Source: Takakia lepidozioides (taxonomy: Eukaryota; Plantae; Bryophyta). From it: 64,000 nucleotides of DNA. Below are positions 25,557 to 59,999 of the stretch, piece by piece; position 1 is the stretch's first letter; each line of letters starts with the position of its first letter. The notes beneath the pieces were generated by a model. It ran no database searches and had not been told where the DNA came from. It saw only the letters and a list, made by a program, of their open reading frames with translations. The stretch is taken from assembly GCA_030704615.1 (NCBI GenBank), contig CM060732.1:17980001-18044000 (forward strand). The letters are read 5' to 3'. A program made the translations under genes and the position numbers.

Positions 25557-25563
25557 ACCCAGT

Positions 25564-25581
25564 TCCCGAGTATGGTCGCCA
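25564..25581 (-). promoter_or_regulatory. Primer-binding site TGGCGACCATACTCGGGA (probably tRNA-Arg-like)
   Basis: Starts with TGG, 2 nt after the 5' LTR end. The tRNA identity is an inference. Confidence 0.7.
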
Positions 25582-25583
25582 AA

Positions 25584-31681: not shown

Positions 31682-31899
31682 GGGAGATGTGCACACAAGA
31701 CTGCCAGGATGGCGTGCGGGGAAGCTCCCTGGTAGAAGGGGGATGCAGCGATTGGAAGGAATGCGGTGCCGATTTGTCCGAGCGACGAAGTCTGATCCAA
31801 ATCCAGGGAGCCAACTATATCAAAAATCCACAGTCAGAATGTTAATGAACCTTGTCTCCGGAATGCGGCCCCTTGTCTTTGCGCAATAACTACCAACGG

Positions 31900-32900: not shown

Positions 32901-33009
32901 TTGCCTCTAGCAGTCAAGGATTCCAAGAAAAACGTGTCTACAAATGCACTTCAGCCACAAAACAAACAGTTTAGTTTGTTTTTCTCCGAAAAATCAATCG
33001 GACACGCTC

Positions 33010-34790: not shown

Positions 34791-37700
34791 CTCGGCCTCG
34801 ATCCCAACTTTCTCCCCCTGCTCCTTCTCGGATTTTCCCTCATCCTCCGAGGATGCCTCTTCCTCTTTCGGTAGACGTTCAGCCGTTGCAAGTTCCGAGT
34901 TGTGGAGGGCAGTATCTGGCTCGAAGGCGAACACATGCCTGTCGGACAACGTCCCTGCCCACATTGAAGCACCTGAGGAACAAAGCGGGCGGTTAATAGC
35001 TTGCGGCATGCAATTGCAATCGGGCCAGGGGACAAACTGAGCACGTGAAGGCTTACCCATGCCGCATGTGAAGTCCAGAATCCGCCCTTGGACATCCGAG
35101 CACGTCTCCATGAGGGTTTGGATGAAAGCAGGGCTCCGGGTCCGGCTGTACCGCCACGGTTTGCCTGTCTTTGTGTCCTTCGGCATACTGGAGTGGGGCA
35201 CATAGTTGTAGAGGACATCGTAGGTTACAGGGTCCACAGCGGCATCAACAAGACGATCGTCGTTGCGGAATTTGAACGTAGACCCTGTCTTCACAAAGCA
35301 ATATGCCTCAAACACCAATGTCTGCACATCCAACAAAGAAGGGATCAACTCCAGGGTCTACTTAACATACACCACAATATGAAGTGAATGCAATAGATTG
35401 ATAACTTACACTTTGGCCCTTTGTTCGCAACCCCTGTGTACTGATGCAGAACCATTTTCTGAGGAGGACCGGGGTGACACTTTTCGGTGTCCACCTTGCC
35501 ACCGCATTCTCTGTGGTCTTCTTTTCTCATGGCAAGGACAACCACACATCCACCGTCATCCAGAAGCATCCCCGCCAGCCCAAACCCGGCTTTCCAGTAG
35601 TCCTCAGTAAACCTGTTCCAGGTGGGCACACCATCCAGGCCTTCCAGCAGCTCCCCATCTGGAATGTCGAGGAGAATCATGTCGCAAGCTCTCTCCACCT
35701 CAACCCCCCCCCCCCCCCCCCCCGAGTGCTCTTGCAATCCGTGCTCACAGCCGTGAAGAATTCCATCATGGCTTCAAAACCAAGGGTGTCTTTAGGCTCT
35801 GTACCACCAGCCCTCTTCTTGGCTTTCCCCTTCTGCTCCGCCAGAGACTTGCTGTGTGCCACCTTCTTCGCCCTGGCAGCGAGAGCGTCAAGGAAGCTCT
35901 CATTGACGCATTGGATGATGGTTGGAGGTTCTAGCTTTGGCCTGTGCGTAAACGTCACCGCCGAATACCGCCGTGTAGGCTCGCCCTCAAATGCCAACTT
36001 CTTGGCAGAGCCAGTCCCACTCCGAACTGACTTGGGAACCCGGACGACCGGTGACTGGGTAGGAGCAACAGCAGTCGCAGGACCTTGAACAAAGTCGTCG
36101 TCCGAGTCACTCTCTTGGGTCCCCTCCTGCGCCTCCTCCGATGCCCCGATGGTTTTCTTCTTTTTGGGTGTTACTGCACTCACCTGTTTCCTTGTCCTTT
36201 TCCTTTGGCCTTTACTCTTCTCATGCAATTTCTCCTGAATTCCTGCCTGAGCAAGCTCTGCCGCTTTCCTGGAGTTCGCAAGCGCTTTTGCCACCCAACG
36301 GAGGCAACGGAGCCCGGTTTCGTCGGAATTTAGCATCCAGCTTCAATTGAAACTTGGATGGGTCGAGCGAGCCGGGCGGAAGGTCCACATACCAAGGGCA
36401 ATCACGCAAATGTTCCAGATGCCACTCCTTCACAATATCGTCAGTGTACATGGAGTCAGCCCCAGGGTTCCTCTATGCCAGGAAGAATGGTGGCTCGAAA
36501 GACAGATGATCTTTCTCCAAAAGGGAGAACTTGCAGTACCTGCATTCATGAAAAACACAATGAGGTCCCTGAAATGCATATTCGGCACCATTTTCCCAGG
36601 TTGGGGCGGATGTGAGTGGGCCTAGAAATGGAAAAATGGCGCCAAATTTCGGTTTTCGGTGACTGCCACCCTAGGGACTTAGCCATCTTGGGAGCCCTGA
36701 ACTGGAAATTCGGCACCATTTTTCCCGGTTTGGCCCGAAGATGGCTAAGCCCCAGAACCGCAATAGGGCCTAGAACTGGAAAAATGGCGCCGAATTTCCA
36801 GTTCAGGGCCAGCCACCCTAGGGACTTAGCCCGAAAATGGCTACGTCCTTGAACGGCAATAGGGCCTAGAACTGGAAAATGGCGCCGAATTTCCACTTCA
36901 GGGCCAGCCACCCTAGGGACTGAGCCCGAAAATGGCTAAGTCCCTGAACGGCAATAGGGCCCGGAACTGGAAAATGGTGCCGAATTTCCAGTTCAGGGCC
37001 AGCCAGTCTAGGGACTTAGCCCGAAAATGGCCAAGTCCCTGAACGGCAATAGGGCCTAGAACTGGAAAATGGCGCCGAATTTCCAGTTCCGGGCCAGCCA
37101 GTCTAGGGACTTAGCCCGAAAATGGCCAAGTCCCTGAACGGCAATAGGGCCTAGAACTGGAAAATGGCGCCGAATTTCCAGTTCCGGGCCAGCCAGTCTA
37201 GGGACTTAGCCCGAAAATGGCCAAGTCCCTGAACGGCAATAGGGCCTAGAACTGGAAAATGACGCCGAATTTCCAGTTTAGGGCCAGCCAGTCTAGGGAC
37301 TTAGCCATTTTCGGAGCCCTGACTGGAAATTCGGCGCCATTTTCCCTAACACCACATGAGGCCTCTAACATCCTGAAATGCAAGGACTTGAAAGAAAGGC
37401 AGTGCGTATGTACCTGTACAGAAGGCGCATTGCTGCTTTGTCCGCGTTCGGCTGGTCGGTGAACTCGTGGCTCCGGCGAGCATCTGCTATCTCTCGAAAG
37501 AATAGGTTGGTTTTGTAGAGCAGAAAGTACCTCGTCACATAGTCGCGTAGGCTCTCTGCTGCAGGAGATATCTCCATCTTGAACTGATGTGCTTGTGTGT
37601 CCAGCTGCTCTTGCGCATTCGTCGTCACCTGTGGAGATTCTCCATCAGATCGCTTTCCTGAAAAAATACAATGAATCCACCCCCTACTAGAGTAGAAGCC

Positions 37701-40423: not shown

Positions 40424-41151
40424 TGTCGCGGCCCTTTGCCTTGAGGGCAGGGGGTCGGGACACATGAGGGGCTGCCCCTGTGGTGGGGGCAGTGGCAGCG
40501 ATAGGTACGGGGGGCTGAAGCACCCTTGAGTGCCCAAGGCACTCAAGGAGCCGGAGGTGCTCACTAGGTGGAGCCCCGCACACCGGGATGCGGTGGGGGT
40601 GGCTTCACAAAGGGGTGGTGGTAGCTTAGCGGGACTTAGTGGGGGTGGCATAGGACTCACCTTGGGGCGGAGACCTCGTGGTGGGAGTCGTGGGGAGTCT
40701 TGGGACTCATCACGGTCCATAGGGGCCGTGGTGGGTGGGCCAAGACTCACCGCGACTCATCACCGGGAGTCGAGGGTTTTCGTGGTGGTTCGCCATAAAA
40801 TGGCATGGTTGTTTGTGAGACCCCCGCGGACAGCTACAAAAGTATATATAGGGAGTAGTAACCCCGAGAACGGTGCAAGCCCATTGGTGACCAAAAACTA
40901 GTGAGTAAGCGAGCGAGCCGGAAAGCGACCAAAGAGTGGGGAGCTGTTCCGGACTGCCAACTACCAAAGGGAATTTCCCGCTGGGCCCAAATCGGTGGAG
41001 GGTTCTTTGGGAGATCAAAGGGGGACCGTTATGCCCCGGTGAGCAGCCGAAGCTCCAAGTTGGCCCGGCGGCCAGGTTGGGAGTTAGGCGCGCGCATCAA
41101 AGCGAGTAACTATGACTTGAAGGGGAGCTTCCCGAAGTGAGGTGCGCGACA
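40424..41151 (+). repeat. Chromovirus 5' LTR
   Basis: TGTCGCG...CGCGACA inverted ends; the first 430 bp are near-identical to 56596-57026. Confidence 0.9.
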
Positions 41152-41153
41152 CT

Positions 41154-41165
41154 TGGTATCAGAGC
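41154..41165 (+). promoter_or_regulatory. PBS for initiator tRNA-Met
   Basis: TGGTATCAGAGC 2 nt after the LTR end. Confidence 0.9.
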
Positions 41166-41206
41166 TTAGAGTTCAGTACGTGATCGTCCTTGGGATTGGC
41201 CTCATC

Positions 41207-42977
41207 ATGGGGTTGGGCAAGCCAAAGCGAAAGCGGAACGGCCCAAAAGATGATGATCCTGGTGAGCCCGATGGGGGCGACGTGTCACCGAGGTGGCCGT
41301 TTGAGGAAGCGATGCATGTTTCCGAAAACGAGGCCGCTCAAGAGCGGGAGGAATCCAAGGAGTCGGAGCCCGAGGAATCCCTGAGAGCTCTGACCGACCA
41401 ACAGATGCCTCCCATGCCGGCAGCCTTTTGGGAAGGGTTGTTGGCGCAGTTTGGCGGGACGTTGAAAGACGTGTTGAAGGCGGCTAATGCCACTTCCACT
41501 AAGGCAAAGTTTAAGGTGAAGCCTAAGGAACCCGGCACCTTCGAGGGCGTCCGAAATCGGAAGGCACTCAACACCTGGCTCCTGGAGCTAGAGCAGTACT
41601 TCCGGGCGGCCAAGTTGAGTGCTCCAGTCTTGAAAATCCCGGAGTTCGATCGTCCGTTCGAGATTCATACGGATGCGTCGGACTTCGCGATTGGGGGTGT
41701 ACTTATGCAAGATGGACGTCCAGTGGCTTATGAAAATAAGAAACTAAATGAAATGGAGCGACGATGGCTGACGCACGAAAAAGAGATGAAGGCGGTGGTG
41801 CATTGCCTTGAGCTTTGGCGCCACTATGTTGGTTCTAACCCAGTGAAGGTGTTCACGGACAATGTTACGGTGAAGTATTTTGCCACATGACAATAACCAC
41901 AGGACTTAGCGACTTGCACAACAGTAAATTTTTCAGACAGGGGCAAGTCTCCTACGACTTGCCCCTGCACCAACAGGTTGCCCTCACCATACTGGGCACT
42001 TGTCATCACAAGCAACTGCCACATTACCTTTCCTGTGTCTCTCAACATACAATGGAAATCACCCCTGCTGCCCACCAGCTTTGCTATGAGTCTGATATGA
42101 TGTGTATCTTGTCTGAATTGTAGATGTATAAGGGTACTGTTTGCCCGGTGAACAGATATCATATTGTACTGTCTAAAGTGTGTCTATCGACACCGGTTAC
42201 AAATAAAAACATGCGGCCGTGGATCTACTGGCGGTTTGATATCTAAGTACCCCAAAACAACTTAGGTGACAAGATACTTTGGCAGTGTTTGACGTGGATA
42301 TCCAGTACAAACCGGGACGTGACAATATGGTAGCCGATGCTTTAAGTAGAAAGCAGCAGCTCCTGTTGGTGTACAGGGGCGAGACGGCGCTCCAAAGGAA
42401 GATCCGGAAGGCTTGCCGGAAGGATGAGCTGGCGAAGTCCGTGATGCAGGACTTGAGGAGGGGGGTTAAATCGCAGTTCCACTTGCAAAATGGACTGCTC
42501 CGGTATAAGCAAAAGCGTCTCTTGAGAGAATGCCATGATAGCCCGCTTGCGGGCCACGGCGGAGCCAAGCGCACTGCGGCACTCTTCATAGAAATTGGCG
42601 GCAGTACTTCATGCACGAAGATGAGTACTTCGAATATCTCCTGGGGGACCCGGAAAGAGTATTTTTGGCCCAAACTGAGGGAGGAGTCAGAGGAGTATGT
42701 CAAGACATGCACCACATGCCAACAAAACCGGAGCGAGTACAAAAAGCAAGCGGGGCTGTTACAACCCTTGCCGATTCCAGAGGGACTTGGGAAAGCGTCT
42801 CGATGGATTTCATGACTGCTATGCCGCTGTCAAAAGGATTCGATGCAATCATGGTGGTGGTGGATAGGTTCAGTAAAATGGGCCATTTCATCCCCACCAA
42901 GGAGACGGCAACGGCGCAGGAGACAGGGCGACTTTACTTCGCCCACGTCTTAAAGCATCATGGAGTCCCGAAGAATA
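41207..42977 (+). pseudogene. Chromovirus gag N-terminus fused directly to RNase H, then integrase N-terminus (PR and RT deleted)
   Basis: PGTFEGVR..LNTWLLELEQYF jumps at about 41620 to SAPVLKIPEFDRPFEIHTDASD. Integrase zinc finger and WESVSMDF...VDRFSK follow. Insertions at about 41888-42240 and 42587-42650. Confidence 0.85.
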
Positions 42978-43510
42978 TGTCGTGCGCATACATATCGCTA
43001 CACAACTACATCGCTGTCCAAACCACACCACACATATATGCACAATAAAGTAGTCTGCCACAATGATAAGAAAGCTAACAAATGACACTGCTCTCCACAC
43101 AAGAAACAATGTGAACTCCAAAACCATCACTCTTTAAAACAGTAGTCGAGCCAGGGGCACCCCAAGCTATGGGGACTCCACCCCACAACAACCTACACTC
43201 CCATCATGAGTAAACTCAGATCTAAACACACACAGGAGCTCGGTCGCGCAGGCTCAACTCGAGAAAGATGAGCCGCGCGACTGCCGCTCTCGTGAAGATA
43301 AGACGGACCAGGTGTCAAACTAAACTTGACACCTGATTTAACACTTGACCTAAATCCAAGTGTTAAATACAAATAACTAGTTTTATTCTAGCTGTTTTCA
43401 CACTGTGCTTATTTAACTTGACAGCTGTCGTGCGCATACATATCGCTACACAACTACATCGCTGTCCAAACCACACCACACATATATGCACAATAAAGTA
43501 GTCTGCCACA
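42978..43510 (-). repeat. 3' terminal repeat block A-B-A (85 + 360 + 85 bp)
   Basis: Two identical 85-bp TG...CA units flank a 360-bp TG...CA unit. The PPT (AGGGGGGCGA on the element strand) is at 43512-43522. Confidence 0.9.
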
Positions 43511-43768
43511 ATCGCCCCCCTAGCTGGTGGATAGGTCCCTCTACCTCCAGATAGCTACAAGATGTAATAGCCACAGCCGTACTAAGTCCTCTATCACTGT
43601 CCCTATTGTACTCAAACTCTATAGACCAAGAGGCCGGGTACAAGAGTAGCCCCATCGTTAGTCGCCGTCTTGCAATCTGTGAACTTGAGCCAGATCTCGT
43701 GTGTTCAAGGTCTCCTAGTAGCTGGGCTTGCGTTTCTTGTTAGCCTCCCATGGTTGTATCCACTCCCA

Positions 43769-46700
43769 CTATCCAATGCAATGTGGACATAACCAATCCC
43801 CATCCGGAACCATCTCAAGAGGTGGAGTCAAGCATCCCATATGCCAACCTCTAGAGCACCGATCACATACCAGCATGGTGGCTGCCCCTTTAGCAGACCC
43901 ACACAACATGCACCTCAAACCTGCAGATACCACTGCCAGGTTTGGGTCAATCCTGCCATCGACATTCGGAAGGTGACATGGCGCACAATTACGCACATGG
44001 TCCTTCCAAGTGATGCCATCCCGACCCTCCAAGACCAAGACGCCTGAGGGCAAGACCTCTCGAACCCTCAAAATAACACGTCCTGCAGTCACATCCAGGG
44101 TCGTAGGAGCAGTCTGCTGCAGATAGACATAGTCACCAGGGTTGAATCTCCGAACCCCAGGACGATAGCCCCCACCACGTATGGTAGCATACCTCAACGT
44201 ATCACGGTGTTGTGCAATGGCAAGGTTCTCGAAAGCCATAGGCATGACTCTCTTGAACAACTCTGCACGCTGCTCACATGCACGTGCCCACACGTCCGGA
44301 TCGTCAAGGTTAAGAACTGTAGCAGCTTCTCTGCGAATGGATGTAGGCAAATCCGGCTCTCGGCCAAAGAGAAGAAAGTATGGTGAGAAGAGGCAAGTGA
44401 TGCTTGCTTGCTGAACCTGTAGCCCATGGCTAACCAGGGTAACTGAAGGTCCCAATCTCCTAGGTGTCCCTTCTGCAAGCCATACTTGCGCAAACCCCTC
44501 TTTACTGTCTGAACAACTCTCTCTGCCAAGCCATCGGCTTCAGGATGATCCCGAGAAGTGGTGCGGTGGTCTATCAAGGCTTTGTCACACAAAGCCTGAA
44601 ACTCCCCCAAGAACTCTCTCCCTTGGTCCGTGAGTACCTCAGCTGGAGCACCGAATCGGCTAAGCACACAATCCAGGAATGCATACGCAGCTCCCTCACT
44701 AGCCTTATCAGGCAATGGAACCAATTCAATCCACTTGGAGAAGTGCTCCACCATCACCAACACGTACTTGTTGTGGCGCATGGTCAGTGGCAACGGCCCT
44801 GCGAAGTCAAGACTCCACCTGTAGCCCAATCCCATGATCGGAAGAGGGTGCAATTGTGGAGTAGGGGCGTTGAATGAAGCACGCACCCTGTCACACACCA
44901 TGCACCTAGCCACAAATTGTTGCACCTCTGTGTGCATACCACGCCACCAATACTGCCCCTGCAGTAGACTATGAGTGCGTCGCACCCCAAAATGCCCCAA
45001 CTCCTCATGGGCATGCCGCACTAACCGTGCCCGCTGTGTTGGGTGAGGCACAATCCTCACTCGACCATCCTCCCACACTCGGAGCAGGTGTGTCCCCTCC
45101 CACCTGAACCTCTTGGCTCGTTGTAGGATCCGATCCCTCTCCTTGGCAGTCATAGTGGCTGCCGTGTCTCCACTGCGGAGGTAGTCCAACACAACTGAAT
45201 CCTCATGTATATCTTTGGCGCCACCCTGCTCATTGCTGGCCTCAGGGTCCTCAGACACTTGATCTACAGTCATCCCTGTTGTAGGTCCAACCTGGCCTTC
45301 CGCTGCCAAGATACACAGAAATGCAGATGCATGCCATCCGGGCACCATCTCCTCGTCCGTCTCACCATGCCACCGAGCTCCAGTGTCATCCTGCTGGCTC
45401 GTGCATGGATTGCGACTCAACCCATCTGCATTTCGATTGACCAAACCCGGTCGATGCACCACCTGAAAGTCATACTCTTGAAGGATGAGTGCCCACCGTG
45501 CAAGCTTCCCCGTAAGCTTGTCTGACTCCATCAACCACTTGAGTGGTTGGTGATCCGTGACAAGGGTGAAGAGATTGCCGTATAGATAGCACCTGAAGTG
45601 TGCCACGGCCCACACTGCAGCTAAGCATTCTCCCTCATATGAGCTATACTTAGACTCTGCAGCATTGTTCGAGCGGCTAGCATAAGCCACTACGAACTCT
45701 CTTCCCTCATCATCCACCTGTGTGAGCACCGCTCCAAGCCCCAGCATGCTCCAATCTGTATGCAGCTGAAAAGGACGCCCCCTGATAGGTCGTCTCAAGA
45801 TGGGCGCCGAGGTCAACCTCGCCTTGAGCTCTTGAAAAGCTTGTTCTTGCTCATCTTCCCACTGCCACTCCTGGTCCACCTTGGTCAGCTTGGTTAGAGC
45901 CTTTGCAATGGCACTAAATCCCTTAACAAACCGTCTGTAATAGTTTGCTAACCCCATGAAAGCTCGAACTCGGCTCACATCCGTGGGGCGTGGAACCTGT
46001 GCAATGGACTCTACCTTAGTCTGCTGTACCCCCAATCCTCCAGGATATATCATGTGACCCAGATACTCAATCTGGTTGTGGAAAAACTTGCACTTGCCCG
46101 GATGTAACTTCAATCCGTGCGTCCTCAAGCGCTCAAATACCCCCTGAAGGTGTCTCTCATGCTCCTCCACCGTAGCACTAAAGATGATGATGTCATCTAT
46201 GTAGCACCGAGCAAACTCCACCCCTGCTAGAATCCTGTCCATGACTCTTTGAAACTCAGCGGGAGCGTTTTTAAGCCCAAATGGTAAGAACCGCCACTGG
46301 TATAGGCAATCCTTCCCGTGCTCATTGATCCCCCAGAATGCCGTCTTTTGCTTATCCGCCTCCTTGATCGGCAACTGGTGATATCCGGATCGTAAATCCA
46401 ACGTGCTAAAGACCTTGGAATGCCCAATGGCATCAAAGATCTCCTCTGGTGTTGGCATGGCATACCTATCGGACTTGGTCTGACGATTTACAGGCCGGTA
46501 ATCACCGCACATACGTCTCTCCGTCCAATTGCCATAGACATCCTTCTTAGCTGGCATCACTGTGGCTGAAGCATACTCTCCACCAGAGAGCTCCACCAAA
46601 CCTGCCTCCCAGAGATCTTGAGTCCTCATCTGAATCAAAGACCTCTCCATGTCACTGTATCTATAGGGTCTCCGAAAGATTGGCGTGTCAGTGGCCAACT

Positions 46701-46902
46701 CAATACGGATCTCTTGACCCTTCAGTGCTCCCAAGTCCTTCAAACTGAAGGCAAAGCAATTCCTGTAAGCCCTCAGGAACCGCCGTATACGTCGTCTCTC
46801 TCCTCCGGTGACAATGGGTCCAATATCAGGCTCCCAATTGTCCTCCGTAACTGCAACCTTAAGTCCAGTGGGCTTAGAGGTAGAGGACGCGTCCCGTGGT
46901 TG
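43769..46902 (-). CDS. RT - RNase H - integrase - PHD finger (one 1-nt frameshift near 44395)
   Basis: LDLRSGYHQ, YIDD, HTDWS, HEELGH..CMVC, SLDF/LTDQG/AER. C-terminal CMLC...CDRC..GWHMGCL.PPL..VP.GDWLCPHC is a C4HC3 PHD finger. Confidence 0.9.
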
Positions 46903-47199
46903 CTATGCTGCAACCTCTTGAGCAGTACCCCCTTCCTGCTCAGTCAATGACAAGGCCTCATCCTGCCCCATCATCTCATCATTGAGAACCTCCTCATCCC
47001 GAGAAGAATCCCCAACCTCATCCATCACAGCTGCCTTCGCTGCCAACTCCCTCTGAACCTCGAGCACCTCCCACATGTGCCATGGATGTCTACACCTCGT
47101 GGTCCTCACCGGCTCGCCCCCACTCGCTGCCTGTACCGTCTCGGTAGGCAGAGAGACCATCAAGGGAAGTGCACTCCGCACTCTACGTTGCTCAGCCAT

Positions 47200-48150
47200 A
47201 GCCAAGCTGACAATCCAGGTCAAGCAATTGAGATCCATTGCTTGCCCCAACACCTGACGACGTGATGCCTCAGAAAGAGAAGGCACCGCCGTGGTCCCAG
47301 TGGAAAACCCCATAGCCCGCTCTCGCTCGTCGGCATTAGGCTCCACTAACTGCTGCAACTGAGCATCCCACAGGAGGCCAGGTCCACCATCCCGAAAAGC
47401 ATGGGATCCTGGGAAGCTGAGCAGTGTAGGTAATGCTGCTCGTGGTTGACCCACCCTGTTGACCACTGCCAAAGGCGAACGGTCATCGTGTCTCACACGT
47501 TGAGACTGCCTTCCTGTGTCCAAAATGCCATCCACGGTGAGGTGTGCTGGCCGCTGCACCCCATCAAATGCACGCTTGAGCAGTGCGGGTGGCATCAAGT
47601 TAGTCCACCATAGTCGTGGACGATGAGCCCGTGACCCCACTGCAGCTGCATCCAGCAACACTGCTGACCCAAGCCACGACCGGACTTGATGCACACTGGC
47701 CATCACCCTGGCCCGAGAATCACCCATCAGTGGTACATTCTCCAAGATGTATGCTGGAGATACAGCTTGATGAAGCTGCAAGGCGCAAAATCCGCACCAT
47801 CTCCCAAAACAGACCCGTCCTCGAGTCTCGCAATCCATTGCCATGCCCGGCTGATGAATGCCCTTGGCAGGGCCAACCTGCCACTATCAGATCAATGGAG
47901 CCAACCTGCTCCAAATCTTGCGCCCCCAACAAGAAATGTCTGCTGGCAAGGCTTGTTGGTATCCACGAACTGCAGACACAGGCAACAAGTCAGGGTACTG
48001 CTGTACCAACTGAGCCACATGGCGCAGTGAGACGCGTCGTGCAGTCTCATCCCTCTCCACATACAGGTAACGCCTTACCCGCACACCTGCCTGTAGCACA
48101 GCAGCCAATCCGGTGCTGATCCCGCCAAACAAGTCCAGAAGGCAAATGCC
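47200..48150 (-). CDS. DNMT3-like C5-cytosine DNA methyltransferase domain (two 1-nt frameshifts at about 47935 and 47780)
   Basis: Motif I LLDLFGGISTG, II YVERD, IV DLIVAGWPCQG, VI ILENV, VIII AHRPRLWWTNL, IX ERERAMGF, X RRQVLGQAMDL, in non-permuted order. Confidence 0.9.
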
Positions 48151-48399
48151 TTCATCCGGCCGCTGCCACACAAGAGGTGTGGTGTCCAATGGCGACAACT
48201 GAGGTGGCCCTGGTGCAATCACCGCACTCTCCTCCTCTCCTGACGGTACAAAAGCTTCTACCCAAGCTTGTTGCACCCGTCCATCAGCAGCTTGCTGCAA
48301 ATCCTTGCTCGTACCCCACAACGGAGTGTGAGCAACCATGGCAGGCAACTCCGCCGTACCATGCATGTCATCCTGCTCTGCTGGAGGTGGCACATCCTC

Positions 48400-49000
48400 T
48401 GCATGGGCATTGCCTTCCAGCAACTCTCCAGGCCAACTAACTGCAGCTGTGAAGGCGGCTAGTGTTGGCATCTTGCCCCGCTGGGCAGCTGCAATACCCC
48501 CAATGAATGTCACAGGGAGCTGTGCACGGCGACCATCCCCTGACTGCCATCCAGGCCTGTAGGATGCTGACTCCTCCCAGAAATCCAGGGTGAAGCCCAT
48601 GGGGTATAACACTGCCCCACCAACGAGGACATCGTAAGAGACCGCGTCTGTCACAATGGCCTTGGCTCGCATCACTGAGCCATCTACAGGATGATCCGGC
48701 TGCAGTCTAATAGCCAACTGATGCCGTGTCATGCCGCGAGCCTGCTCTGATCCTCCCAGAGATGTCTGTATCTGGAAAGGACAAGGCTCCATATCCGCCT
48801 CCATGAGGCCCAAACCTGCAATAGCAGCTCTGCCCAACATCAGTGGCTGAGCTCCTGAGTCCAACAAGACCCGCAGTGGCCGGTACTTCTTGCCTGCCGG
48901 TCCACTCAAAGTGAAAATGCCTCCCTGGTTGTCTAACAAGACAACTCCAGGTGTCACCATGGCGCGCTCAATGGCTGGCCTAGCTGGCAGCTCCGTCAAC
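48400..49000 (-). CDS. Aspartic protease domain
   Basis: VLLDSGAQPLMLG ... YDVLVGG in ORF 47887-49206. Confidence 0.85.
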
Positions 49001-49175
49001 CTGGCAGCTGCAGCTTGCCAGGGCGCAGCCGTGGCAGTCTTGACCCTCAAATCCGAGGATCCCTCTGCCACTACACCTTCCACTAACTCCGCAGAAGATG
49101 AAGTGACCTCCCCACTCTCACAGAGTGTTGCTGCTAGTCTGAACACTGCAGCTGGTCTCACCCCCGGCGTCGCAA

Positions 49176-51105
49176 TCATGTTGCCGAGAACAGTGGGGCC
49201 TGACACACAGAGGTGGCTGCCCCCAATAACACACCGGCCGCACTAGCCTTGGCAGCAGGAGTCAATGCTGCACGTGTAGCTCTCCCCAATGGCATAGTAA
49301 CCTCCGCCTCGGTAACAGTCGGGCGAGAACTAGGTGCCATGGATGGCGTTGACACAGTCTCCGCCAATGTGAATGACTGAGGAAGCCTTGCCTGACGGCT
49401 TGCCTCCCCACGCTGTGGATCCAATTCCACCTCTGCACCTCGTGGCTCAGGAACTCGTGCTGCTCCTCGAGTCACGGCTGCAGCAGACTCCACCTGCTCT
49501 AGTGGTAGTGCTGCTCCGCACATAAATCCCATGCCTCCCATATCTCCTCCCTCAGGAGCAGGAGGTGGGCCATCCCGCCTGGGAGCCGGTACCGCCTGAG
49601 CTATAGCCATGGCAGCGAGCCTCTGCTCTAGCTGCTGAAGCCGATTGGCCATGCCTTGGTCAACACCCTGACCTCCGCGTCCTTGGCCATGTGGAGGTTG
49701 CCCTTGGCCTGCACCTCGTGCCCGACCACCTCGTCCTCTTTGGGCTGGTCCACCTCGCCCCCGGCCACCATTGTTCCCTTGGAACTGGCCTGGGCGCAAC
49801 TCAGGATGCAAGTCATAACACTGGGCATCTCCATGCCCATACTTGCCACAATGCCCACACTGCAACTGTGCAGGCTGTGCTTGTGCCGGCCTTCTGCCAC
49901 TCTCTGGGCAATCTCTCTTGACATGGGGTCCTCCACATGTCCAACATATCACCCCTGGTTGCTGTTGGCCTGCAAAAGATGCCACGGGCCTCTGCACCTG
50001 AGGTCCCCTGTAAGCTCCATGGAACTTGGGCTGGGCAACCTTGCCCCCTGACCACGCTGTTGGGCAGTCCCTTGTGCTTGTGGGCTGACAGCTGTGCCTC
50101 GTACAGGCATGTCCTTACCAAATCCAATTGTAACAACTCGCTCCTCCACCATGTTGAGCTCAATCCGCTCAGCCAGCAGAAACACATCTGCTAATGTGGG
50201 TTGGGCTGCTTGTAACAGGGTTGCATCTCGCACCCTTCTCTTGAGCTCCTTGTCCAGAATTCCATACCAAAACTGGATTGCCTGAGCTTCAGTAACCCCT
50301 TGGGTCACACTTATCAAGCGCCTCATACGAGTGTACGCCTCTCGCAGGCTCTCACTGGGTTTGCGCTGGAAGTCTTGCAAACTTTGCAGCTTCTCTGTCC
50401 GTACACCTTGGTAGTTCCTCCGCAACTCCTGGAAGAACTCCACCACCGGTTGAATCTAGGCACATGTGTTGTAGCTGTGGCAGGAGGAGTAGTAGCACCT
50501 TCTGAACTGGTACCACCTGCAGAAGTACCAGCACTACCTGCTCCACTACTAGTGCTGGCAGTGGGAGCTATTGTTACTGATGCAGCTACTGGTCGCGTCA
50601 TGCCTCGAGTAATGGAGATGTAGTCAGGTGACCAATACATCCTCCACTCCTCAATCTCTGCTTCATGTCCTCGCCTGAACTCGTGGTAATCGTCCATAGG
50701 CGGGCCTTCCAAATGCTGGAACAGTCCCTTCCACGCCATGAATGGGGTGAATAGATGTGGATTGCGCATCTGCTGCAAATCACACCAGCTGTCGAACTCC
50801 TGGATAAAGTCATCCAACTCGATTGTGCCCACAGCTCCAGAGTACCTACGAGGCCCCTTGGTAGCTCCATACATCTCCTCCATGTCGTCCCACAACAATG
50901 GCGAGTGAAAGTGCACACCTGTTGATGAAGCCTCCGAGCCTGTGTCTGACTCTACAGTAATTGAGGGTGGCGGTGAAGGTGGTCTGAACCAAATACCTCG
51001 TCTTGTGAACCCACTCTCACTGTTACTGCCTGTAGCCGTACTCCTCTCAAAACCCTTGGGTAACTCCGTAATGACACTCACAATGTGCACCTCCTCCAGT
51101 GACAC
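49176..51105 (-). CDS. gag with two zinc knuckles (1-nt frameshifts at about 50455, 50050 and 49178)
   Basis: PRRYSG...LDDFIQEF..WC, FQRKPSESLREAYTRM, CWTCGGPHVKRDC, CGHCGKYGHGDAQC. Confidence 0.85.
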
Positions 51106-51616
51106 TATAAGGCTCTAGTACTAATCTAATAGTGACACGGGTGGGCACCTGTTGCAGTCTAAGGGTCATATCCCAGTGGCTCAGGGCACCTGCACCTGCA
51201 TCCACCGCAAGAACTCCTATGGTTGGCTGGTCATCAACCCAGCCTCACCATAGAAGAAACACTGGTGGTCTTGCTGGTCATCACTCCAGCCTCACCACCG
51301 ACAGCATACTCTAGGATTGACCGGTGATCAAATCCGGCCTAATCCCTATGAAAGCAAGCGCCCACACAAAACCAACATGGCGCACAGTCAAGCATGCAGG
51401 TGTTGGGGGGGATCCAAACACAAGAAATCAAAACATCAACACCCCCACACCAAAATCCAGCTGCAATGCTGATCCTGCAAATATCCCAGCCCAAAACCCC
51501 GGACTGACTGGCCTCCACCAAGAGAGGCTTTGGCAACTACAAGTACAAGGTGATGAAAATAGTACAGAGATGGAGGGGAAGAATAGAAGCCCGACCAAGC
51601 AAGATCTAATCCTGAT

Positions 51617-52366
51617 CTATGCTATCAACTGCCAGACTTCTCTCAAAGTGCCTCGCTCTGCATGATGGTAAGGTGTAGGAGGTATATCTATGTCCAGAAA
51701 CCTGCCACTAACCTTGTCCCAAGCTACAGTAGCTCGCTCTAACCAACCCTCCTCCTCTTTCTGCCAGGTAGAGACAAAGCAATACTCCCCTATCTCCCGC
51801 TCACTGAACACTAAAGAAAACAAAGGTAGGGTCTGATAGTCTCTCAACTCGAAAGCTTTGAGACGGTTGCGGGTGTCCTCATTGCGAATGACTGCATCTC
51901 CTTCACGCACAACAAACATGTCATTGCTGATGAACCCCCGCTCGTGGTTGCCCTGTGCAGAGCGTATCCGGCTGCAATCATGTCTGATTGCACAAACTTG
52001 TGTAGCTCCTGCTCCTCTGCTCCAGTACACCACGGCCTTGTGACTGAACACCTTGGTCCCCGGGGCTGTCTTTGGCTGTGTTCCAAGCCTAGCTTTCACC
52101 CACTTTGGTATTTCACCTACAGCTGCAGAACTGCTGGCTCCAACAGAGTTCTGACTGTCCAAGGCGATATTGAGGCCCTCAATGCCAACTACAGCAGTCT
52201 GTTGTCTACTGCTAATGCCTGACTCCCAGTATGCAATCAACTCGTCCAACTGTTCTCCACTCAAATCAGTCTGAGTTCCTTGGGAAACATAAATCCTGTC
52301 CCCTTGTGTGCACAGACTAAGAGAAGAGACCTGCCCTTCAATTACGTCCTCATTTCCCCCAGCCAT
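51617..52366 (-). CDS. Unknown 249-aa ORF upstream of gag
   Basis: Intact ATG-to-stop ORF on the element strand with protein-like composition. No motif recognised. Confidence 0.5.
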   Translation of the reverse strand: MAGGNEDVIEGQVSSLSLCTQGDRIYVSQGTQTDLSGEQLDELIAYWESGISSRQQTAVVGIEGLNIALDSQNSVGASSSAAVGEIPKWVKARLGTQPKTAPGTKVFSHKAVVYWSRGAGATQVCAIRHDCSRIRSAQGNHERGFISNDMFVVREGDAVIRNEDTRNRLKAFELRDYQTLPLFSLVFSEREIGEYCFVSTWQKEEEGWLERATVAWDKVSGRFLDIDIPPTPYHHAERGTLREVWQLIA

Positions 52367-54422
52367 GCAAGGAGTACACCCACCAATTTGTCTCTCATAT
52401 AGACCAGCACAGGTTCTAGAGACAGGATTGTGGATCTTTCATGGCACACTCACACTCTAAAAATTCCATAGATTTTTAGCAGAGTCCCAAAAACAGAAAC
52501 CAGGTCTAGATAGGTAGATTTCCCCTTTCTGCAGATATCCCCTCAAAAACTGAGTCAAACGGAGCTCATTTGACAAAGATATGACCAACCAGGCTCTTTA
52601 AACATTTAAATTAGATCAAAAAAGGTTTTTTTTTTTTTTTTTTTTAACACCAAAACGCTTTTGCCATTACAACCTGTTCCCAGGTTATCTACGAGTTCCC
52701 GAGGTCGTTCCCCTCCAGGATCCTCCAGGCACCAAGAGCTCGTTAATTCCAACACTCGACCTCAGTTGGGTGGGGTATCACGATTTGCTTTCTCTGCGCG
52801 TGGGCCTGCCTCCTCGAGACCTAGAGACTACAAACCAGGAATTGGGCGATTTCAAGAGCAGATGCACTGCGCAGCACCTTCATGGCTTATGGACAGGCGG
52901 CCTGCTGTGATGTGGCCGTCTCTGCATGGAATCCAAAGCCAAGACCAGCTTGAAGTTCCATCAACTTGGTCTAATTCGCATCTCTCGCCAACGATTATTG
53001 TTGGCTTAGAATGGTTTCCGCCTTCCTGTTACTGCTCGTGTTTGCTTTTGTGTGCATTCTACAGGTCAGGGATCGGCGACAACAGGCACCAGATTGCCCC
53101 GTCACCACCCCCACAAGGCACAGACGACTTCACTGCCAGGAAAAAGAAAGTGAACCATGCTCAGCATGTAGACCCAAGGCCTGGGTCCATCTGCATCAGC
53201 TCCAGTATAAGAGAGACAATCATATAGTTATCAAGTCTCTACAGGAATTTGCGATTGCCTCAGTAAAGTGGAACTCAATCTGCAGCCTCCTTCCGCCGCC
53301 TCTCCATCAACCCTTGGAGGCTCTCGTCCGCTGGCCTCATCCGTCAGCATTGCTTCTCCTGCTACGAGTCTTCGCATTTCCTCCCCTGCTCGCCTGTGCA
53401 GAAGTAAGTACCCTTGACGCCGAAATGACAGTAGAGGCAAGTGATCAATTGGAAGTGTTCAATGATGAGACAAATAGAGCTGGAGCTCCCTTGACCTGTA
53501 TCGCCACAATCTTGGACTCGGGCAGTGTACTGAGTTGAAAGCTGGGTTGTGAACCACCATTCGACTTTCCACCAGTTTCCACATCAAAATGGTGGAACCA
53601 AGGTGCAAGGCAGCAACAGCTACTTGGCTTTGTACAAACCTGAAGCACTTAAAAAAACGAAAACGACTTTGCACCTTGCACTCTCCGAAATCAACAATGC
53701 CCCCAACAACCCTTTTTGTCAGAAAGTTGGTTGCTTATGCAGATAATCGACCAGGTGAAAGCAGCTTTCCCAGCCACAATCACAAGTAGCATGAAGCTTT
53801 GTGAGACTCCTGGTTTTGCAGTGTTGATGATATGCCAGCAATGGGCTCCCCGTTCTCCATCGCTTTGTGCTAGGCTTTCTCTCTCGGGCCCTGCACCTTC
53901 AACCAGCTCGCTGCGCCATGCTCTACCTGCCGGCGCTGCATTTACTGGAGGGAGCAGATTTACAGCTCCTCCTTCAACTGGCTCCGCTACACCAGCTCCA
54001 CCTGCTCTTCCGCTGCCTTTCCTGACCGCTTCTGGTCTGTCCTGGTTCTAATTTAACACTGGTCTGTGCACATCGAACTAAGGCGAGCAGCCCGGCCATC
54101 TCCAGGCACGGAAGTTCTACCCATCTGCTCGATCACAGGCTCCTCCTTTAAGTCTCGCACTTGGTCAGTTTCCCAATGGCCAATCGCTGCTACTCCACGA
54201 TGTCTCCTCACCGACCAAAACAAAGGCTGCTTCCATGCAGTGTAGCTCCATCATGCCCGGCGGCCTCATGCCAGAACCAACGCTGATCGAAACCTGCATA
54301 TTTTGTTTTGTTTTGTTTTTTTTTTTTTCTTCTAAGCTTCTAAAACTAAGCACTACTTACACACAGATAATCGTACAAGTGCTAACCCTCAACTCCTACC
54401 TTGCACTCACAGGTAAGAGGTG

Positions 54423-54434
54423 ATCTTTCTCGAG
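54423..54434 (-). promoter_or_regulatory. Putative self-priming site (replaces tRNA PBS)
   Basis: CTCGAGAAAGAT directly follows the 5' repeat and is the exact reverse complement of element-strand ATCTTTCTCGAG at 54640-54629. No TGG-starting PBS. Confidence 0.75.
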
Positions 54435-54794
54435 TGATAAGAAAGCTAACAAATGACACTGCTCTCCACACAAGAAACAATGTGAACTCCAAAACCATCA
54501 CTCTTTAAAACAGTAGTCGAGCCAGGGGCACCCCAAGCTATGGGGACTCCACCCCACAACAACCTACACTCCCATCATGAGTAAACTCAGATCTAAACAC
54601 ACACAGGAGCTCGGTCGCGCAGGCTCAACTCGAGAAAGATGAGCCGCGCGACTGCCGCTCTCGTGAAGATAAGACGGACCAGGTGTCAAACTAAACTTGA
54701 CACCTGATTTAACACTTGACCTAAATCCAAGTGTTAAATACAAATAACTAGTTTTATTCTAGCTGTTTTCACACTGTGCTTATTTAACTTGACA
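54435..54794 (-). repeat. 5' terminal repeat B (360 bp)
   Basis: No differences from 43064-43423 seen by eye. Confidence 0.95.
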
Positions 54795-55691
54795 AATATT
54801 GTCTCGGACCGCGATCCAAAGTTTACGAGTAAATTTTGGAGGACACTTTGGAAGAAGATGGGGACGAGGCTGAAGATGAGCACCGCCTTCCGACCTATGA
54901 CCGACGGCCAAACAGAAAGAGTGAATTCCGTAGTGAAGCAGATCTTGCGGAATTACGTGTCGGCAGACCAATCAGACTGGGTGGAACACTTAGACGCGGT
55001 AGAGTTCTGTTATAATAACACAAAACACTCCGCAACGGGAGTTTCCCCTTTCGTATTGGTCTATGGAAAAGCACCTCTGGTGCCGACAAGTTGGGCCGCC
55101 CAGGACGTTGAGGAACCGGCAGTAGCGGCGGTACTAGAAGAACGCGAGCGTTTGTTGAAGCTCGCAAAGTACAACATTGCCAAAGCTAGGAAACGGTATG
55201 AAAGGCAGGCGAATCGGAAGCGGAGGGAAGTGAAGTTTGAGGCAGGCACGAAGGTCTGGTTGAACATCAAGAATTTCCGACTACCTCTGGAAGTGAGTCC
55301 AAAGTTCGTACCTCCGTATGCGGGACCCTTTCGCATCCGGAAGGTTATGAATGAGGATGTGTATGAATTGGAGCTCCCGGCAAACAGCAAGGTGCATCAA
55401 GTATTCCACGTCTCCCTTTTGAAGCCTTACTTCAAAGATGAAGCGCGTCCGAATCGGCATCAAGTGTTGCGTCCGCCACCTGTGCTGTTGGATCATGAAA
55501 ATGAACCTGAGTACGAGGTGGAGGCAGTACTTAAGTCGAGGAGGTTCGAGAACCGAGAAACGGAGTATCTCGTCAAATGGAAGGGCTATCATTATGTGGA
55601 GGCATCTTGGGTGCGTGCCTCAGAAATGGGAAACGCATCCGAGGCGGTTGCAGTTTTCGAAGGGCGACCTCAAAAGCGGAAGAAGCGTTGA
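54795..55691 (+). pseudogene. Chromovirus integrase C-terminal half with GPY/F motif and chromodomain
   Basis: IVSDRDPKFTS, TDGQTERVN, YAGPFRI, YEVEAVLKSR...YLVKWKGY...ASW. Continues the frame interrupted at 42977. Confidence 0.92.
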
Positions 55692-56595
55692 TGGGGACAT
55701 CAACCTTGGAGCGTGGGGGAGGAAATGCATGCTTAGCCCGGCTTAGCTAGCTCAGGAATCCGATTGCAAAAACTTGTATTGTACAAAAATTTGTTATAAA
55801 GGAAATGGGTTCCAAATGTTGTGCGTCCTATTTTGTTTGGAATGGTGATGTATGGTGTGGTTGGTTAATGTGTAGAATGCATGTTAGCTTACAAAAGTGG
55901 GAGAGGTAAATTGGGTTAATCGTGTGTTTGCGCAGTGCCAAAATCGGGTGACTCCCTCAAAGGGCAAGGAAACATGTGCCTTCTTTGGGAGTTCAGGTGC
56001 TAGTGCGCACCTGGCGCGTGCGCGTACTATAACTGCGCTACCGAGGTGGTTGCCTTGTAGTGCGGGCTAACGCGGAAGCTACGTGCTTCCGTTCACGTAC
56101 TATAATCGTGTAGCCTCGGGACGAAGTTGTAGTGCGGCTTCGACGTGTTCCCGTACCTCAGGCCAACATTCCAAGACGGACCCAATTGTAGTGATTGGGG
56201 CGCACGGTTGGTTCAAGGTTATCTTCCTAGTCAAAGGGGGTTCGAGGTGAACCCTTGCGCAAGGTGATGCCAAAAGCGGCATCATGAGCGATCGCAAGCA
56301 ATGTTGTTGCAGTAAGGCGATTCGATCCTCGGGGAGGATCGTTCCTTGGCCTTGAAGTAGGCCAAGAAGAGTGCACTGGGAGGAGCTTGAGAGGCTCCAC
56401 CCCTGGCCGGGACTTGGAGGAAGTCGGCCGAACTAGCTAGTGGAGAGTAGAGTCAAGTGTGGGGTTTGGTTCTTTGCCATGGGACGCCATGGTACGGAAA
56501 CAAACTCCTTGATGTTGGACGCCACAACTTGGATGTTCGTTTCTACAAAATGGACAAGTCGATGAGGACATCGACTCCCTGTTGGTAGGGGTGTG

Positions 56596-57026
56596 TGTCG
56601 CGGCCGTTTGCCTTGAGGGCAGGGGGTCGGGATACATGAGGGGCTGCCCCTGTGGTGGGGGCAGTGGCAGCGATAGGTACGGGGGGCTGAAGCACCCTTG
56701 AGTGCCCAAGGCACTCAAGGAGCCGGAGGTGCTCACTAGGTGGAGCCCCGCACACCGGGATGCGGTGGGGGTGGCTTCACAAAGGGGTGGTGGTAGCTTA
56801 GCGGGACTTAGTGGGGGTGGCATAGGACTCACCTTGGGGCGGAGACCTCGTGGTGGGAGTCGTGGGGAGTCTTGGGACTCATCACGGTCCATAGGGGCCG
56901 TGGTGGTGGGCCAAGACTCACCGCGACTCATCACCGGGAGTCGAGGGTTTTCGTGGTGGTTCGCCATAAAATGGCATGGTTGTTTGTGAAACCCCCGCGG
57001 ACAGCTACAAAAGTATATATAGGGAG
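56596..57026 (+). repeat. Chromovirus 3' LTR, truncated
   Basis: Matches 40424-40855, then switches abruptly to the MULE terminus. Confidence 0.9.
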
Positions 57027-57664
57027 GAGGTTAGCTATTTCATGAGCATGAGCGGCATGAGCGGAGTAGCAAGACAATCGGTTTTCATGAGCAGAAGTAC
57101 AGATTTCGAAAACAAAAAACATTATAAAACATTAATTTAATGCAATGTGTCAGAAAAAACAAATATATTATTCGGCACCTTGAAGGGAAAATTGTAGTTT
57201 TGAGAGTTGTGCTCATGATATTTCGTCTTCCGCTCATGCCAATTCCCAGCGACATGTGCAAAAATGGCGCCAAATTTCGCGGTAATAGGGTCCGTAACCG
57301 GAAAAATCCGCGACGTGTTTCGCGGTAATAGGTCTCTCTGGCGAAAAATGGTGCCGAATTCCGCGGCTATCGGTCCCCTCATGACAGGTGTGTAAGCCCA
57401 AAATTTGGAAATGTGGCGCCGAATTTCGGTACATGGTGTGCCGGGGATTGCACAGATGTTGGGCAGTTCTGGGTCATGTAACTGGAAATTCGGCCCAAAA
57501 TAGAGAAATTCGGCGTTTTTTTTTCCAGAAATGGCCCCACAACTGTTTCTGTTGGATCTCAGTTTGAATGGAATATTTCCTCATTCCAGGAGTTTTGGGG
57601 TGCATTTCATTACACTGCAAAAAAAAGTTTGATACATGAAAATGCAATTGAAAATATCCATATG

Positions 57665-58489
57665 GAGGATTCCCTTTGCCCCATCAATGATTTCTGGAAT
57701 CCCTAAGGAGGAGTTTGTGCAGCTCGTTCACGCTCAACGCATCGGCTGTTGGCCTCTTCGAAGCAATGGCGTGTCCCGAAGGCCCTCTCGCAAGGCCGCC
57801 CGAGGAGGGAACTCAAAGAAGATATTACCGTCGACGTCTACGGGAAAGCATGTAACCGATTTAAATGCGAACTTGCTGTAGTCCAGCCCGGCCAGCTCCG
57901 AGCGGTGTCCCTCCATGTGAAGCCCTCGCAGAATTTCAAGAATGGATCGAACTGCGGTGCTCGTGCTGGGAATATGACTCCCTCGTCTACTGACATCCAT
58001 TGAGGACTTGCCTGATCTCCAGGACGATCTCGGAACTTCCATGACCTCGTCTGAGTCGGACAGGTTGTGAATAACCTGGTTCTCGCTCGTCTTCATTGAT
58101 GGGTTTGGCTCTGGATTTACTTCGTTGCGGACTTCTCTCTTTGAGGTACCCACACACTGATTCGTGGATTGTTTCGTGGAAGGCGCCAGGATAGAAGGTG
58201 CATTTGGCGGGCAAATGAAGTCCCCAACAGCCCTGTATATGACACTGTCCGATGGTGGAACTCATCATTCCCTGCCATCGCCGAAATCATCGTGGAGCAC
58301 AACAATACTCTCGACAACAACGCCGTTTGAGTCCTTCTTTTCCTCCTCCAAAAAAACCAACCCCGGTTTCAGGTGGTATCGAACGCACAGATATTTCTCC
58401 ATCACACGGCAGATGTCCCCTCTGCACGGAAATGAAGCTCTATGCTCGTGAGGAGGGCAGTACACTGAAGCGCTCGGGTTTTCCGCCAT
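57665..58489 (-). pseudogene. Deleted copy of the MULE transposase
   Basis: Matches 28089-28147, 29200-29257 and 30988-31681. One junction has CCGCCC microhomology (about 57796-57801). Confidence 0.85.
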
Positions 58490-58759
58490 GGGAGATGTGC
58501 ACACAAGACAGCCAGGATGACGTGCGGGCAAGCTCCCTGGTAGAAGGGGGATGCAGCGATGGGAAGGAATGCGGTGCCGATTTGTCCGTGCGACGAAGCC
58601 TGATCCAAATCCAAGGAGCCAACTATCTCAAAAATCCACAATCAGAGTGTTAATGAACCTTGTCTCCGGAATGCGGCCCCTGGTCTTTGCGCAATAACTG
58701 CCAACGGTATGCAGTAAGAAAGTGGCGGGCCGTCCGGATGATGTCGGCTGAAGGGGAGA

Positions 58760-59890
58760 AGCCGGCACCGGGCCGTCACATTACTACCCCCGGATGGAAA
58801 TTCGGCACCGAATATCCAATAGGGGCCGCCCGGTTGAAGTCGCCTCGGGCAGAGAGGCCGGCACCTGTTCGACAGAGGACATCCCCCGGATGGAAATTCA
58901 GAGCCGAATTTCCATCCGGGCCCCCGAAAGGAAGTCCTGTCGGGGGGTTAGGCCGAAAACTGGCCGACATAAAAACCTCCCCGGATGGAAAAACGGCACC
59001 GAATTTCCATCCGGGGCCGTTCGGATGCAGTCGGCCCGGGGGAAGAGGCCGGCACCTGGCCGTCACATTACAACCCCCGGACGGAAAATTGGCACCGAAT
59101 ATCCAACAGGGGACGCCCGGATGAAGTCGCCTCGGGCGGAGAGGCCGGCACCTGTCCGACAGAGAGCATCCCCCGGATGGAAATTCGGCGCCGAATTTCC
59201 GTCCGGGCCCCCCCAAAGGAAGTCCTGTCGGGGGGTCAGGCCGAAAACTGGCAGACATAAAAACCTCCCTGAATGGAAAAACAACGCCGAATTTCCATCC
59301 GGGGCCGTTCGGATGCAGTCAGCTCGGGGGGAGAGGTCGGCACCTGGCCGTCACATTACAACCCCTGGACGGAAACTCGGCACCGAATATCCAACAGGGG
59401 ACGCCCGGATGAAGTCGCCTCGGGCGGAGAGGCCAGCACCTGTCCGACAGAGAGCATCTCCCGGATGGAAATTTGGCACCGAATTTCCATCTGGGCCCCC
59501 ACAAAGGAAGTCTTGTCGGGGGGTCAGGCCAAAAAGTGGCCGACATAAAAACCTCCCCGGATGGAAAAACGGCGCCGAATTTCCATCCGGGGCTGTTCGG
59601 ATGCAGTCGGCTCGGGGGGAGAGGGCGGCACCTGGCCGTCAAATTACAACCCCCGGACGGAAATTCGGCACCGAATTTCCAACAGAGGACGCCCGGATGA
59701 AGTCGCTTCGGGCGGAGAGGCCGGCACCTGTCCGACAGAGAACATCCCCCGAATGGAAATTCGGCGCCGAATTTCCATCCGGGCCCCCCCAATGGAAGTC
59801 GTGTCAGGGGGTCTGGCTGAAAACAGGCCGACATAAAAACCTCCCTGGAAGGAAAAACGGCGCCGAATTTCCGTCCGGGGCCGTTCGGAT
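58760..59890. repeat. 288-bp tandem repeat (about 4 copies)
   Basis: Equivalent ORF starts at 58985, 59273 and 59561 give a period of 288. Confidence 0.9.
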
Positions 59891-59999
59891 TTCCCCCTAG
59901 CAGTCGAGAATTCCCTGAAAAACGTATCTAAAAGTGGACTTCAGCCAAAAAAAACTAAAGGTTTAGTGTCTTTTTAGACCAAAAACCTAGCGGCCACGC

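Follow-up and report, generated by a model that had tools for sequence, protein, structure and literature searches.

The moss Takakia lepidozioides carries, in the 64,000-nucleotide stretch analysed here (assembly GCA_030704615.1, contig CM060732.1, positions 17,980,001 to 18,044,000; hereafter the window), a Ty3/Gypsy retrotransposon on the minus strand whose insertion ends lie inside its long terminal repeat (LTR), at the two halves of a palindrome encoded there. This internal-palindrome arrangement is family- and clade-wide and no one-off, as it recurs in every classifiable insertion end that we collected from related loci. Judging from the inserted sequences, the copies probably derive from a polar cDNA, joined end to end, that integrase would open at the palindrome of the upstream LTR.

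Read along the element strand, the insertion consists of a block B (B1, 54794-54436, starting at a TGTC half-site), a primer-binding site (PBS), the leader, gag, pol, a polypurine tract (PPT, 43521-43513), a block A (A1, 43512-43426), the dinucleotide GC (43424-43425), a second B (B2, 43423-43065) and a second A (A2, 43064-42978, ending at a GACA half-site), and it is flanked on both sides by AATA (42974..42977 and 54795..54798), which is the layout that the original prediction had described. The A copies (42978-43064 vs 43426-43512, 87 nt) and the B-type copies (43064-43423 vs 54435-54794, 360 nt) each show no difference, giving 0 differences in 447 nt of paired repeats, so that the insertion must be young; the window element is thus a recently inserted, broken copy. 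Uninterrupted host sequence was found in the sequencing runs X1, X4 and X5 (12, 29 and 1 contigs, respectively, with loose ends at 42978, among the matches listed), and this empty site demonstrates that the 4-bp target-site duplication (TSD) is real. Formally the ends can be shifted by one base, with ATAT as the TSD, and it is the sister copies that fix them at TGTC and GACA. Together these half-sites correspond to the palindrome GACAGCTGTC (GACA-GC-TGTC, 43420-43429), the sole GACAnnTGTC match in the 64-kb window, which persists uncut between A1 and B2 and is the putative att site of the integrase. The base at 43064/54435 lies outside B and is part of both the primer site and A. Since the predicted self-primer pairs with base 54435 and no nucleotide separates the PPT from A, the full reverse-transcription LTR (A1-GC-B2, 43065-43512, minus strand) measures 448 bp, equal to the period from A to A, and the joint between B and A (43064..43065, minus strand), connecting a U5-type end at the PBS boundary to a U3-type end at the PPT boundary, is blunt. 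The LTR length of 447 bp and the spare T at the joint given originally are corrected accordingly.

Ends were compared across 80 related metagenome loci with a pol 44-78% identical to that of the window, 44 of which matched our LTR queries and 36 did not. The end counts merge duplicate views (10 confirmed pairs, with L048 and L044 recognised by shared flanks) and add the window copy; L026 (A cut short), L074 (contig ending in A) and L019 (A belonging to another insertion, on the other strand) were omitted, as were L003, L005, L006 and L033, which represent other families outside the query set. Among 28 classifiable 3' ends (27 metagenomic and the window), 15 were of the A-B-A type and 11 had a single A, the other two being L011 (half of B followed by A) and L020 (A-B followed by an inverted B). 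All 28 stop at GACA or its deaminated form, and all 16 classifiable 5' ends (15 metagenomic and the window) start at TGTC or its deaminated form with no A ahead, which bears out the earlier claim that the integrated ends are palindrome halves whose central GC has been lost. Complete terminal LTRs coinciding with the reverse-transcription ends were absent (0/28 and 0/16), so that the ordinary A+B...A+B sister copies, which would have made the window element a singular event, were sought in vain. Both ends were available for 14 insertions (window included, two stitched from duplicate views), comprising eight B...A-B-A and six B...A elements, with ten exact 4-bp TSDs, three with one mismatch (L044, L049, L059/L060) and one without any (L052). 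The original expectation that most copies start at B, end with A-B-A and have 4-bp TSDs therefore holds for the starts and the TSDs, while the A-B-A end is shared with a frequent single-A form.

The palindrome is conserved across families whose pol is only 44-75% identical to the window's (families 2 and 3, L003, L006 and L033), where it lies within the LTR, the distance to the U3 end being 87-180 nt. In nearly all copies, its centre is GC, GT, AC or AT, the variants that decay of a methylated CHG would be expected to leave; L062 has AA. A motif search of 17 loci, mostly without an LTR-query match, located the palindrome after the PPT in L003, L006 and L033, and an end at the GACA half-site was recognised by eye in L005. 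The reverse-transcription ends of the three families read AT...TC, AG...TC and AT...AT, none of them TG...CA. In IMG/VR, no relative was found among 84 pattern matches.

Contigs of public runs, including X2, which may be the sample from which the window was assembled, were compared with positions 43372-43535; the loose-end matches listed are 18 of 77 for this comparison and 24 of 679 for a wider one, and all run counts given here are among them and are not copy numbers. In X2, 41 contigs carry long, mutually unlike flanks beginning exactly at 43426 (agreement 0.36) and 11 further ones at 43425 (agreement 0.42), so that 52 contigs leave A for unrelated flanks at the palindrome, and 14 continue from A into B-type sequence at 43512. 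X5, another sample, contributed two flank contigs at 43426 and one at 43423, a B-side flank contig being seen in one case, in X5; record 2 of X2 reads flank-A-PPT and hence has a single-A end, and X6, a presumed RNA run, gave one contig. Ordinary LTR ends did not appear among the matches listed, which is weak evidence. Sister subfamilies differ most at the U5-type end of B (window 43070-43130), which shows a drop in depth and several loose-end variants, and these variants are still joined to A.

One could argue for an ordinary LTR element that underwent a single rearrangement or was misassembled, since no contig in the runs compared spans the complete A-B-A block of the window. However, the block, which the original prediction had taken as real, is backed by the 14 A-to-B joint contigs of X2 and by 14 distinct A-B-A insertions in independent metagenome assemblies; divergent families, assembled independently, share the layout, the palindrome and the 4-bp TSD; 52 contigs of X2 stop at the half-site; and not one of the 28 3' ends is ordinary. 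The recurrence and the flank contigs refute this explanation, to which we assign a negligible probability.

The LTR is bounded by sequence signals of reverse transcription, on one side by the PPT and on the other, through the homology of B2 with B1, by the PBS. A G-tract immediately precedes A1 in 27 of 28 listed cases; in the exception, L017 (~4577-4607), A follows the PHD-coding sequence directly, without a PPT. In all three families, the 12-13 nt that follow B1 have their complement at B positions 155-180. For the window, the PBS (54423..54435, minus strand) forms 13 pairs with the predicted transcript 5' end, i.e. a self-primer and transcription start in B1 (54628..54640, minus strand, B positions 155-167), a match equalled in 1 of 200 shuffles, and its position in the B repeat is the same in families 2 and 3. 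Nine of 15 5' ends reached a shuffle p<=0.05 (these ends are not independent), the remaining ones having no significant match, and the site is present in L003 too. In the minimum-free-energy fold of the predicted window RNA, the first 9 nt pair with the PBS (whole-fold z -4.3). A TATA-like box ~30 nt upstream of the self-primer site was seen in the five other loci examined (L016, L049, L056, L059 and L003) and is degenerate in the window copy. At the level of sequence, this pattern is that of Tf1-type self-priming, as described for Tf1 and Tcn1 (PMC6317226); in Tf1, about half of the cDNA retains a PBS copy (PMC11042837).

Two copies have aberrant 3' ends. L020 (3244-3876) reads PPT-A-GC-B, a 12-nt PBS copy, an inverted B from position 180 to 1, GACA and flank. 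It is likely a fossil of self-priming, in which a plus strand had copied through the primer and cleavage took the half-site farthest out, sparing the inner palindrome. In L011 (3290-3602), the internal region is joined to B at ~177-181, the predicted strong-stop end, and the copy ends B/A-GACA, with PPT, A1 and palindrome all absent, as might result if the first strand transfer went astray and the other LTR came in trans, or if sequence was deleted afterwards.

The B/A joint lies at the ends that PBS and PPT define, in agreement with the earlier proposal that it is an end-to-end fusion of two LTRs. It is precise at these boundaries in 11 of 16 cases, with the same blunt joint in families 2 and 3, and PBS or PPT bases were retained in none of the 16. 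Deletions of 1 to ~150 nt occur in L050, L071, L078 and L056, and L009 (10838-10856) has a 19-nt filler, 11 nt of which match B sequence ~30 nt upstream. In addition, A2 is nearest to the A1 of its own element in eight of 13 elements and among the top two in 11 of 13, where about two first ranks would be expected by chance. The joint lesions and this tracking favour the view that joint and A2 are made anew in every cycle.

An RNA-templated, PAT/Ngaro-like route would instead have the transcript run through B2-A2, with the internal A-B serving as a splint for circle closure, so that joint and A2 are inherited and the DDE integrase merely opens the product. The repeat order is that of PAT-type DIRS elements (PMC5890265, legends of Fig. 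1e and 4c), polarity would follow from it, and L011 does possess an A2 without PPT or A1. Moreover, in family 3, a 15-bp unit beside the palindrome is missing from A1 in three of ten elements and from the terminal A in none of 14 (p=0.06); in these elements (L050 13043-13203, L052 13638-13798 and L075 13097-13260), the terminal A2 has the tandem unit that A1 lacks, a difference not expected if both A were copied from one template. Yet A1 and A2, like B1 and B2, are identical in the window despite the variability of the family, private variants are common to A1 and A2 within elements, the joint sits exactly on the PPT/PBS boundaries in three families, and five of 16 joints have lesions of their own, so that we regard this route as unlikely.

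The insertions are polar. Ends of the B-A-B type were found at 0/16 5' ends, compared with A-B-A at 15/28 3' ends (Fisher p=1.9e-4), and none of the eight three-block elements with both ends is B-A-B...A (binomial p=0.008). Short-read assembly might bias this polarity, but A-B-A blocks and distant B pairs did assemble in the same data. Taken literally, the original prediction implied a free, covalently closed 2-LTR circle made by end-joining, of which integrase opens either palindrome at random. A circle of this kind accounts for B...A-B-A, for the lost GC and for the end-joining-like lesions at the joint, and has a precedent in foamy virus (PMC1180852). In its geometry, however, both palindromes have the same surroundings, at least 87 nt on one side and ~290-360 nt on the other, and with identical contexts B-A-B...A should arise as often as B...A-B-A, contrary to the counts above; in L020, furthermore, the half-site that was cut lay on something other than a simple circle. 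What stands of the proposal is integration at an internal att-like site, in keeping with ends at the palindrome and a joint at the reverse-transcription ends; the free symmetric circle does not, and we consider it improbable. An end-joined intermediate is still likely, though it would have to be polar.

Polarity would also follow if something other than the plain integrase core cut the palindrome, or if the site were chosen by a mark, e.g. by the element's own Dnmt3 protecting or licensing one palindrome, or by a host nuclease or recombinase. The clade does encode Dnmt3-like and PHD domains, and CHG and CG sites occur in the palindrome and its flanks. Against this, a 4-bp TSD with two central bases lost is the outcome of DDE chemistry, no recombinase domain was detected in 14 element frames and six homologs, and nothing supports a methylase acting on cDNA, which leaves this explanation with little probability as well.

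For the polar, end-joined cDNA, we propose the following cycle. The transcript would begin at a site ~155 nt inside B1 and use its own 5' end to prime on the PBS, as in Tf1. Ordinary LTR-type reverse transcription would then yield a linear A-GC-B-internal-A-GC-B molecule, the ends of which lack TG...CA, and the B end, the last to be finished by the plus strand, would be joined to the A start, either by an end-to-end jump of the reverse transcriptase or by host end-joining. Integrase would nick after CA on both strands in the palindrome of the upstream LTR, which is finished first, producing 2-nt GC overhangs that repair would remove, and insertion with a 4-bp stagger would give B...A-GC-B-A. 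Use of the downstream palindrome as right end, or later recombination between A1 and A2, would produce B...A, a form without the 3' R region that would be dead. The simplest account of the polarity would be one of timing, in which the upstream LTR is double-stranded first and bound by integrase and only the plus-strand end finished last meets a ready acceptor; it fits a jump of the reverse transcriptase without extra assumption, and a ligated circle if integrase is bound beforehand.

Several observations speak against this cycle or weaken it. All of its steps are read from inserted copies, and the timing argument rests on the textbook order of reverse transcription. The single-A ends may have arisen either at integration or by later recombination. 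The short A1 copies of family 3 are not what it predicts, L052 has no matching TSD, and the ends of L020 and L011 were each seen once, in short-read assemblies. Finally, in L003 (8545-9317) and L033 (3619-4791), PPT-A-palindrome-B runs on without a second A, in L003 into PBS and leader; these loci may be collapsed assemblies, tandems or circles, and were left uncounted as ambiguous.

The coding content agrees with the domain order of Ty3/Gypsy, i.e. gag followed by protease, reverse transcriptase, RNase H and integrase, with the protease assigned by motif alone. All parts lie on the minus strand. Gag (49176..51114) is spread over three frames and has a weak PF03732 match, each piece being matched by 13-14 loci. 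A protease-like segment (DSG motif, by eye) and a Dnmt3-like cytosine methyltransferase region before the reverse transcriptase (46903..49242) contain stops and frame changes, with PCQ and ENV motifs in different frames; the homologs P0016, P0048 and P0065, which match PF00145, align here. Reverse transcriptase (PF00078), RNase H (PF17917/17919), the H2C2 integrase zinc finger (PF17921) and the rve core (PF00665) occupy 44194..46902, and the C-terminal part of the integrase with a PHD finger (43769..44539, PF00628, E 4.8e-11) lies in another frame than the core, a frame change compared with intact homologs. The window copy is hence disrupted in gag, methylase and integrase tail, and broken frames next to identical repeats suggest that it was mobilised in trans or carries assembly errors. 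A chromodomain (PF00385) on the integrase was not found by Pfam scan of the window element and homologs, the PHD finger being there instead. Tyrosine recombinases had no Pfam match in 14 element frames of at least 100 aa or in six homologs. A leader frame of 273 stop-free codons (51617..52438, minus strand), considered as a hidden recombinase, was rejected, having no support as a gene (no Pfam match, 0/80 loci, no usable Atlas match).

The integrase is a DDE enzyme, as had been proposed. The spacing between its second D and E, taken from the translation, is 34 residues, and 34 was also found in 71 of 77 pattern-matching homologs (120 examined, P0001-P0118), compared with D(35)E in six outgroup proteins. 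Thirty-five is the usual retroviral spacing, and the spacing in the clade is one residue shorter than in the outgroup Gypsy proteins and in the window's other Gypsy element (19231-20541). The nearest named relatives are liverwort proteins (77-78% identity), followed by Closterium, Klebsormidium and Tetraselmis (~40-53%). In a reverse transcriptase-RNase H tree (FastTree, 31 sequences, midpoint root, L039 dropped), the window element, families 2 and 3, and liverwort, K. nitens, Closterium and chlorophyte proteins form one clade (support 0.987) that is separate from the remaining Gypsy elements; the K. nitens sequences were taken from a database and may not be the copies of PMC5890265. On balance, we lean towards the view that in this green-lineage clade, from chlorophytes to liverworts, the att site has moved from the cDNA ends to an internal palindrome and that an obligate polar end-to-end join of the cDNA, possibly made by the reverse transcriptase, would precede D(34)E cleavage.

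The host of the insertion is itself a chromodomain Gypsy element on the plus strand (40424..57029) with ordinary, 99% identical LTRs, and the insertion interrupts its integrase gene. Another Gypsy element of the ordinary kind (12942-26598, minus strand) is delimited by ~1-kb LTRs, 92% identical and with TG...CA ends, and by a 5-bp TSD containing one mismatch; its integrase is followed by a 475-codon frame without Pfam match. Two related tandem-repeat-rich stretches (27339-37350 and 57026-62470) are 86-95% alike in parts and include a weak SWIM-finger frame (28089-29528) and a 759-codon frame without Pfam match (29540-31819); one of them adjoins the right LTR of the host element.

In the textbook view, LTR elements and retroviruses integrate linear cDNA through its two processed termini, and forms with joined ends are dead ends. 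The clade described here seems, as a whole, to take a joined-end form for its normal route, the substrate being 10 bp long. Its integrase would then be of the DDE type and yet find and open a palindrome inside the DNA and distinguish two identical sites. For retroviruses, the productivity of joined-end forms has been debated (PMC1180852; PMC5314604). LTR finders that require paired terminal LTRs, the criterion by which plant elements were found and classified by Neumann et al. 2019 (PMC6317226), whose main text has neither 'PHD' nor 'methyltransferase', would likely mis-delimit or miss such elements, and annotations of bryophyte and algal genomes probably contain too few of them.

The closest known counterpart is KnitGypsy-Dnmt3 of Klebsormidium nitens (de Mendoza et al. 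2018, PMC5890265), for which the legend of Fig. 4c gives DIRS-like repeats and Gypsy domains. It shares with the window element a Gypsy pol with a Dnmt3-like domain, the DIRS-like repeat order and the grouping of the reverse transcriptase with K. nitens proteins; that paper, in the parts covered, gives neither insertion ends nor a TSD or palindrome, and says nothing of a primer site, of polarity or of a mechanism. Beyond this legend, the literature searched yielded no account of a DDE LTR retrotransposon with an internal att site or a permuted LTR, with subscription journals, Repbase reports and theses outside the search; a 2026 preprint on adenine-methylase LTR elements has nothing on internal ends in the part covered, and the covered part of PMC9977147 nothing relevant. 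The repeat layout has appeared in print once, unexplained, and likely reflects a non-canonical integration route.

Among better-known systems, PAT, Ngaro and VIPER have split direct repeats of the order X-coding-Y-X-Y, and DIRS, PAT and Ngaro are not known to have a TSD of fixed length, different from the 4-bp TSDs here. The window clade resembles PAT, Ngaro, VIPER and also SymbioDIRS (PMC5890265) in this repeat order, but has no detected tyrosine recombinase and instead a DDE integrase, a PPT, a PBS and 4-bp TSDs, with the central dinucleotide lost. With Tf1/Sushi and Tcn1 (PMC6317226), it has in common, at the sequence level, a PBS complementary to its own LTR instead of to a tRNA; those elements are, however, chromoviruses with ordinary paired LTRs, whereas here a PHD finger replaces the chromodomain, the reverse-transcription ends lack TG...CA and the insertion ends are internal. 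Foamy-virus integrase cleaves the palindrome at the LTR-LTR circle junction (Delelis et al. 2005, PMC1180852), and the cutting of a duplex-internal palindrome to processed ends by a DDE integrase, deduced here from inserted copies, is a likeness to foamy virus and HIV-1 (PMC1180852; PMC1905944). There, the palindrome is created by joining the reverse-transcription ends, whereas in the window clade it is encoded within the LTR and the joint of these ends persists uncut in the inserted copy. If the proposed cycle is true, it would constitute a third life cycle of LTR elements, between the end integration of retroviruses and the circle recombination of DIRS-type elements.

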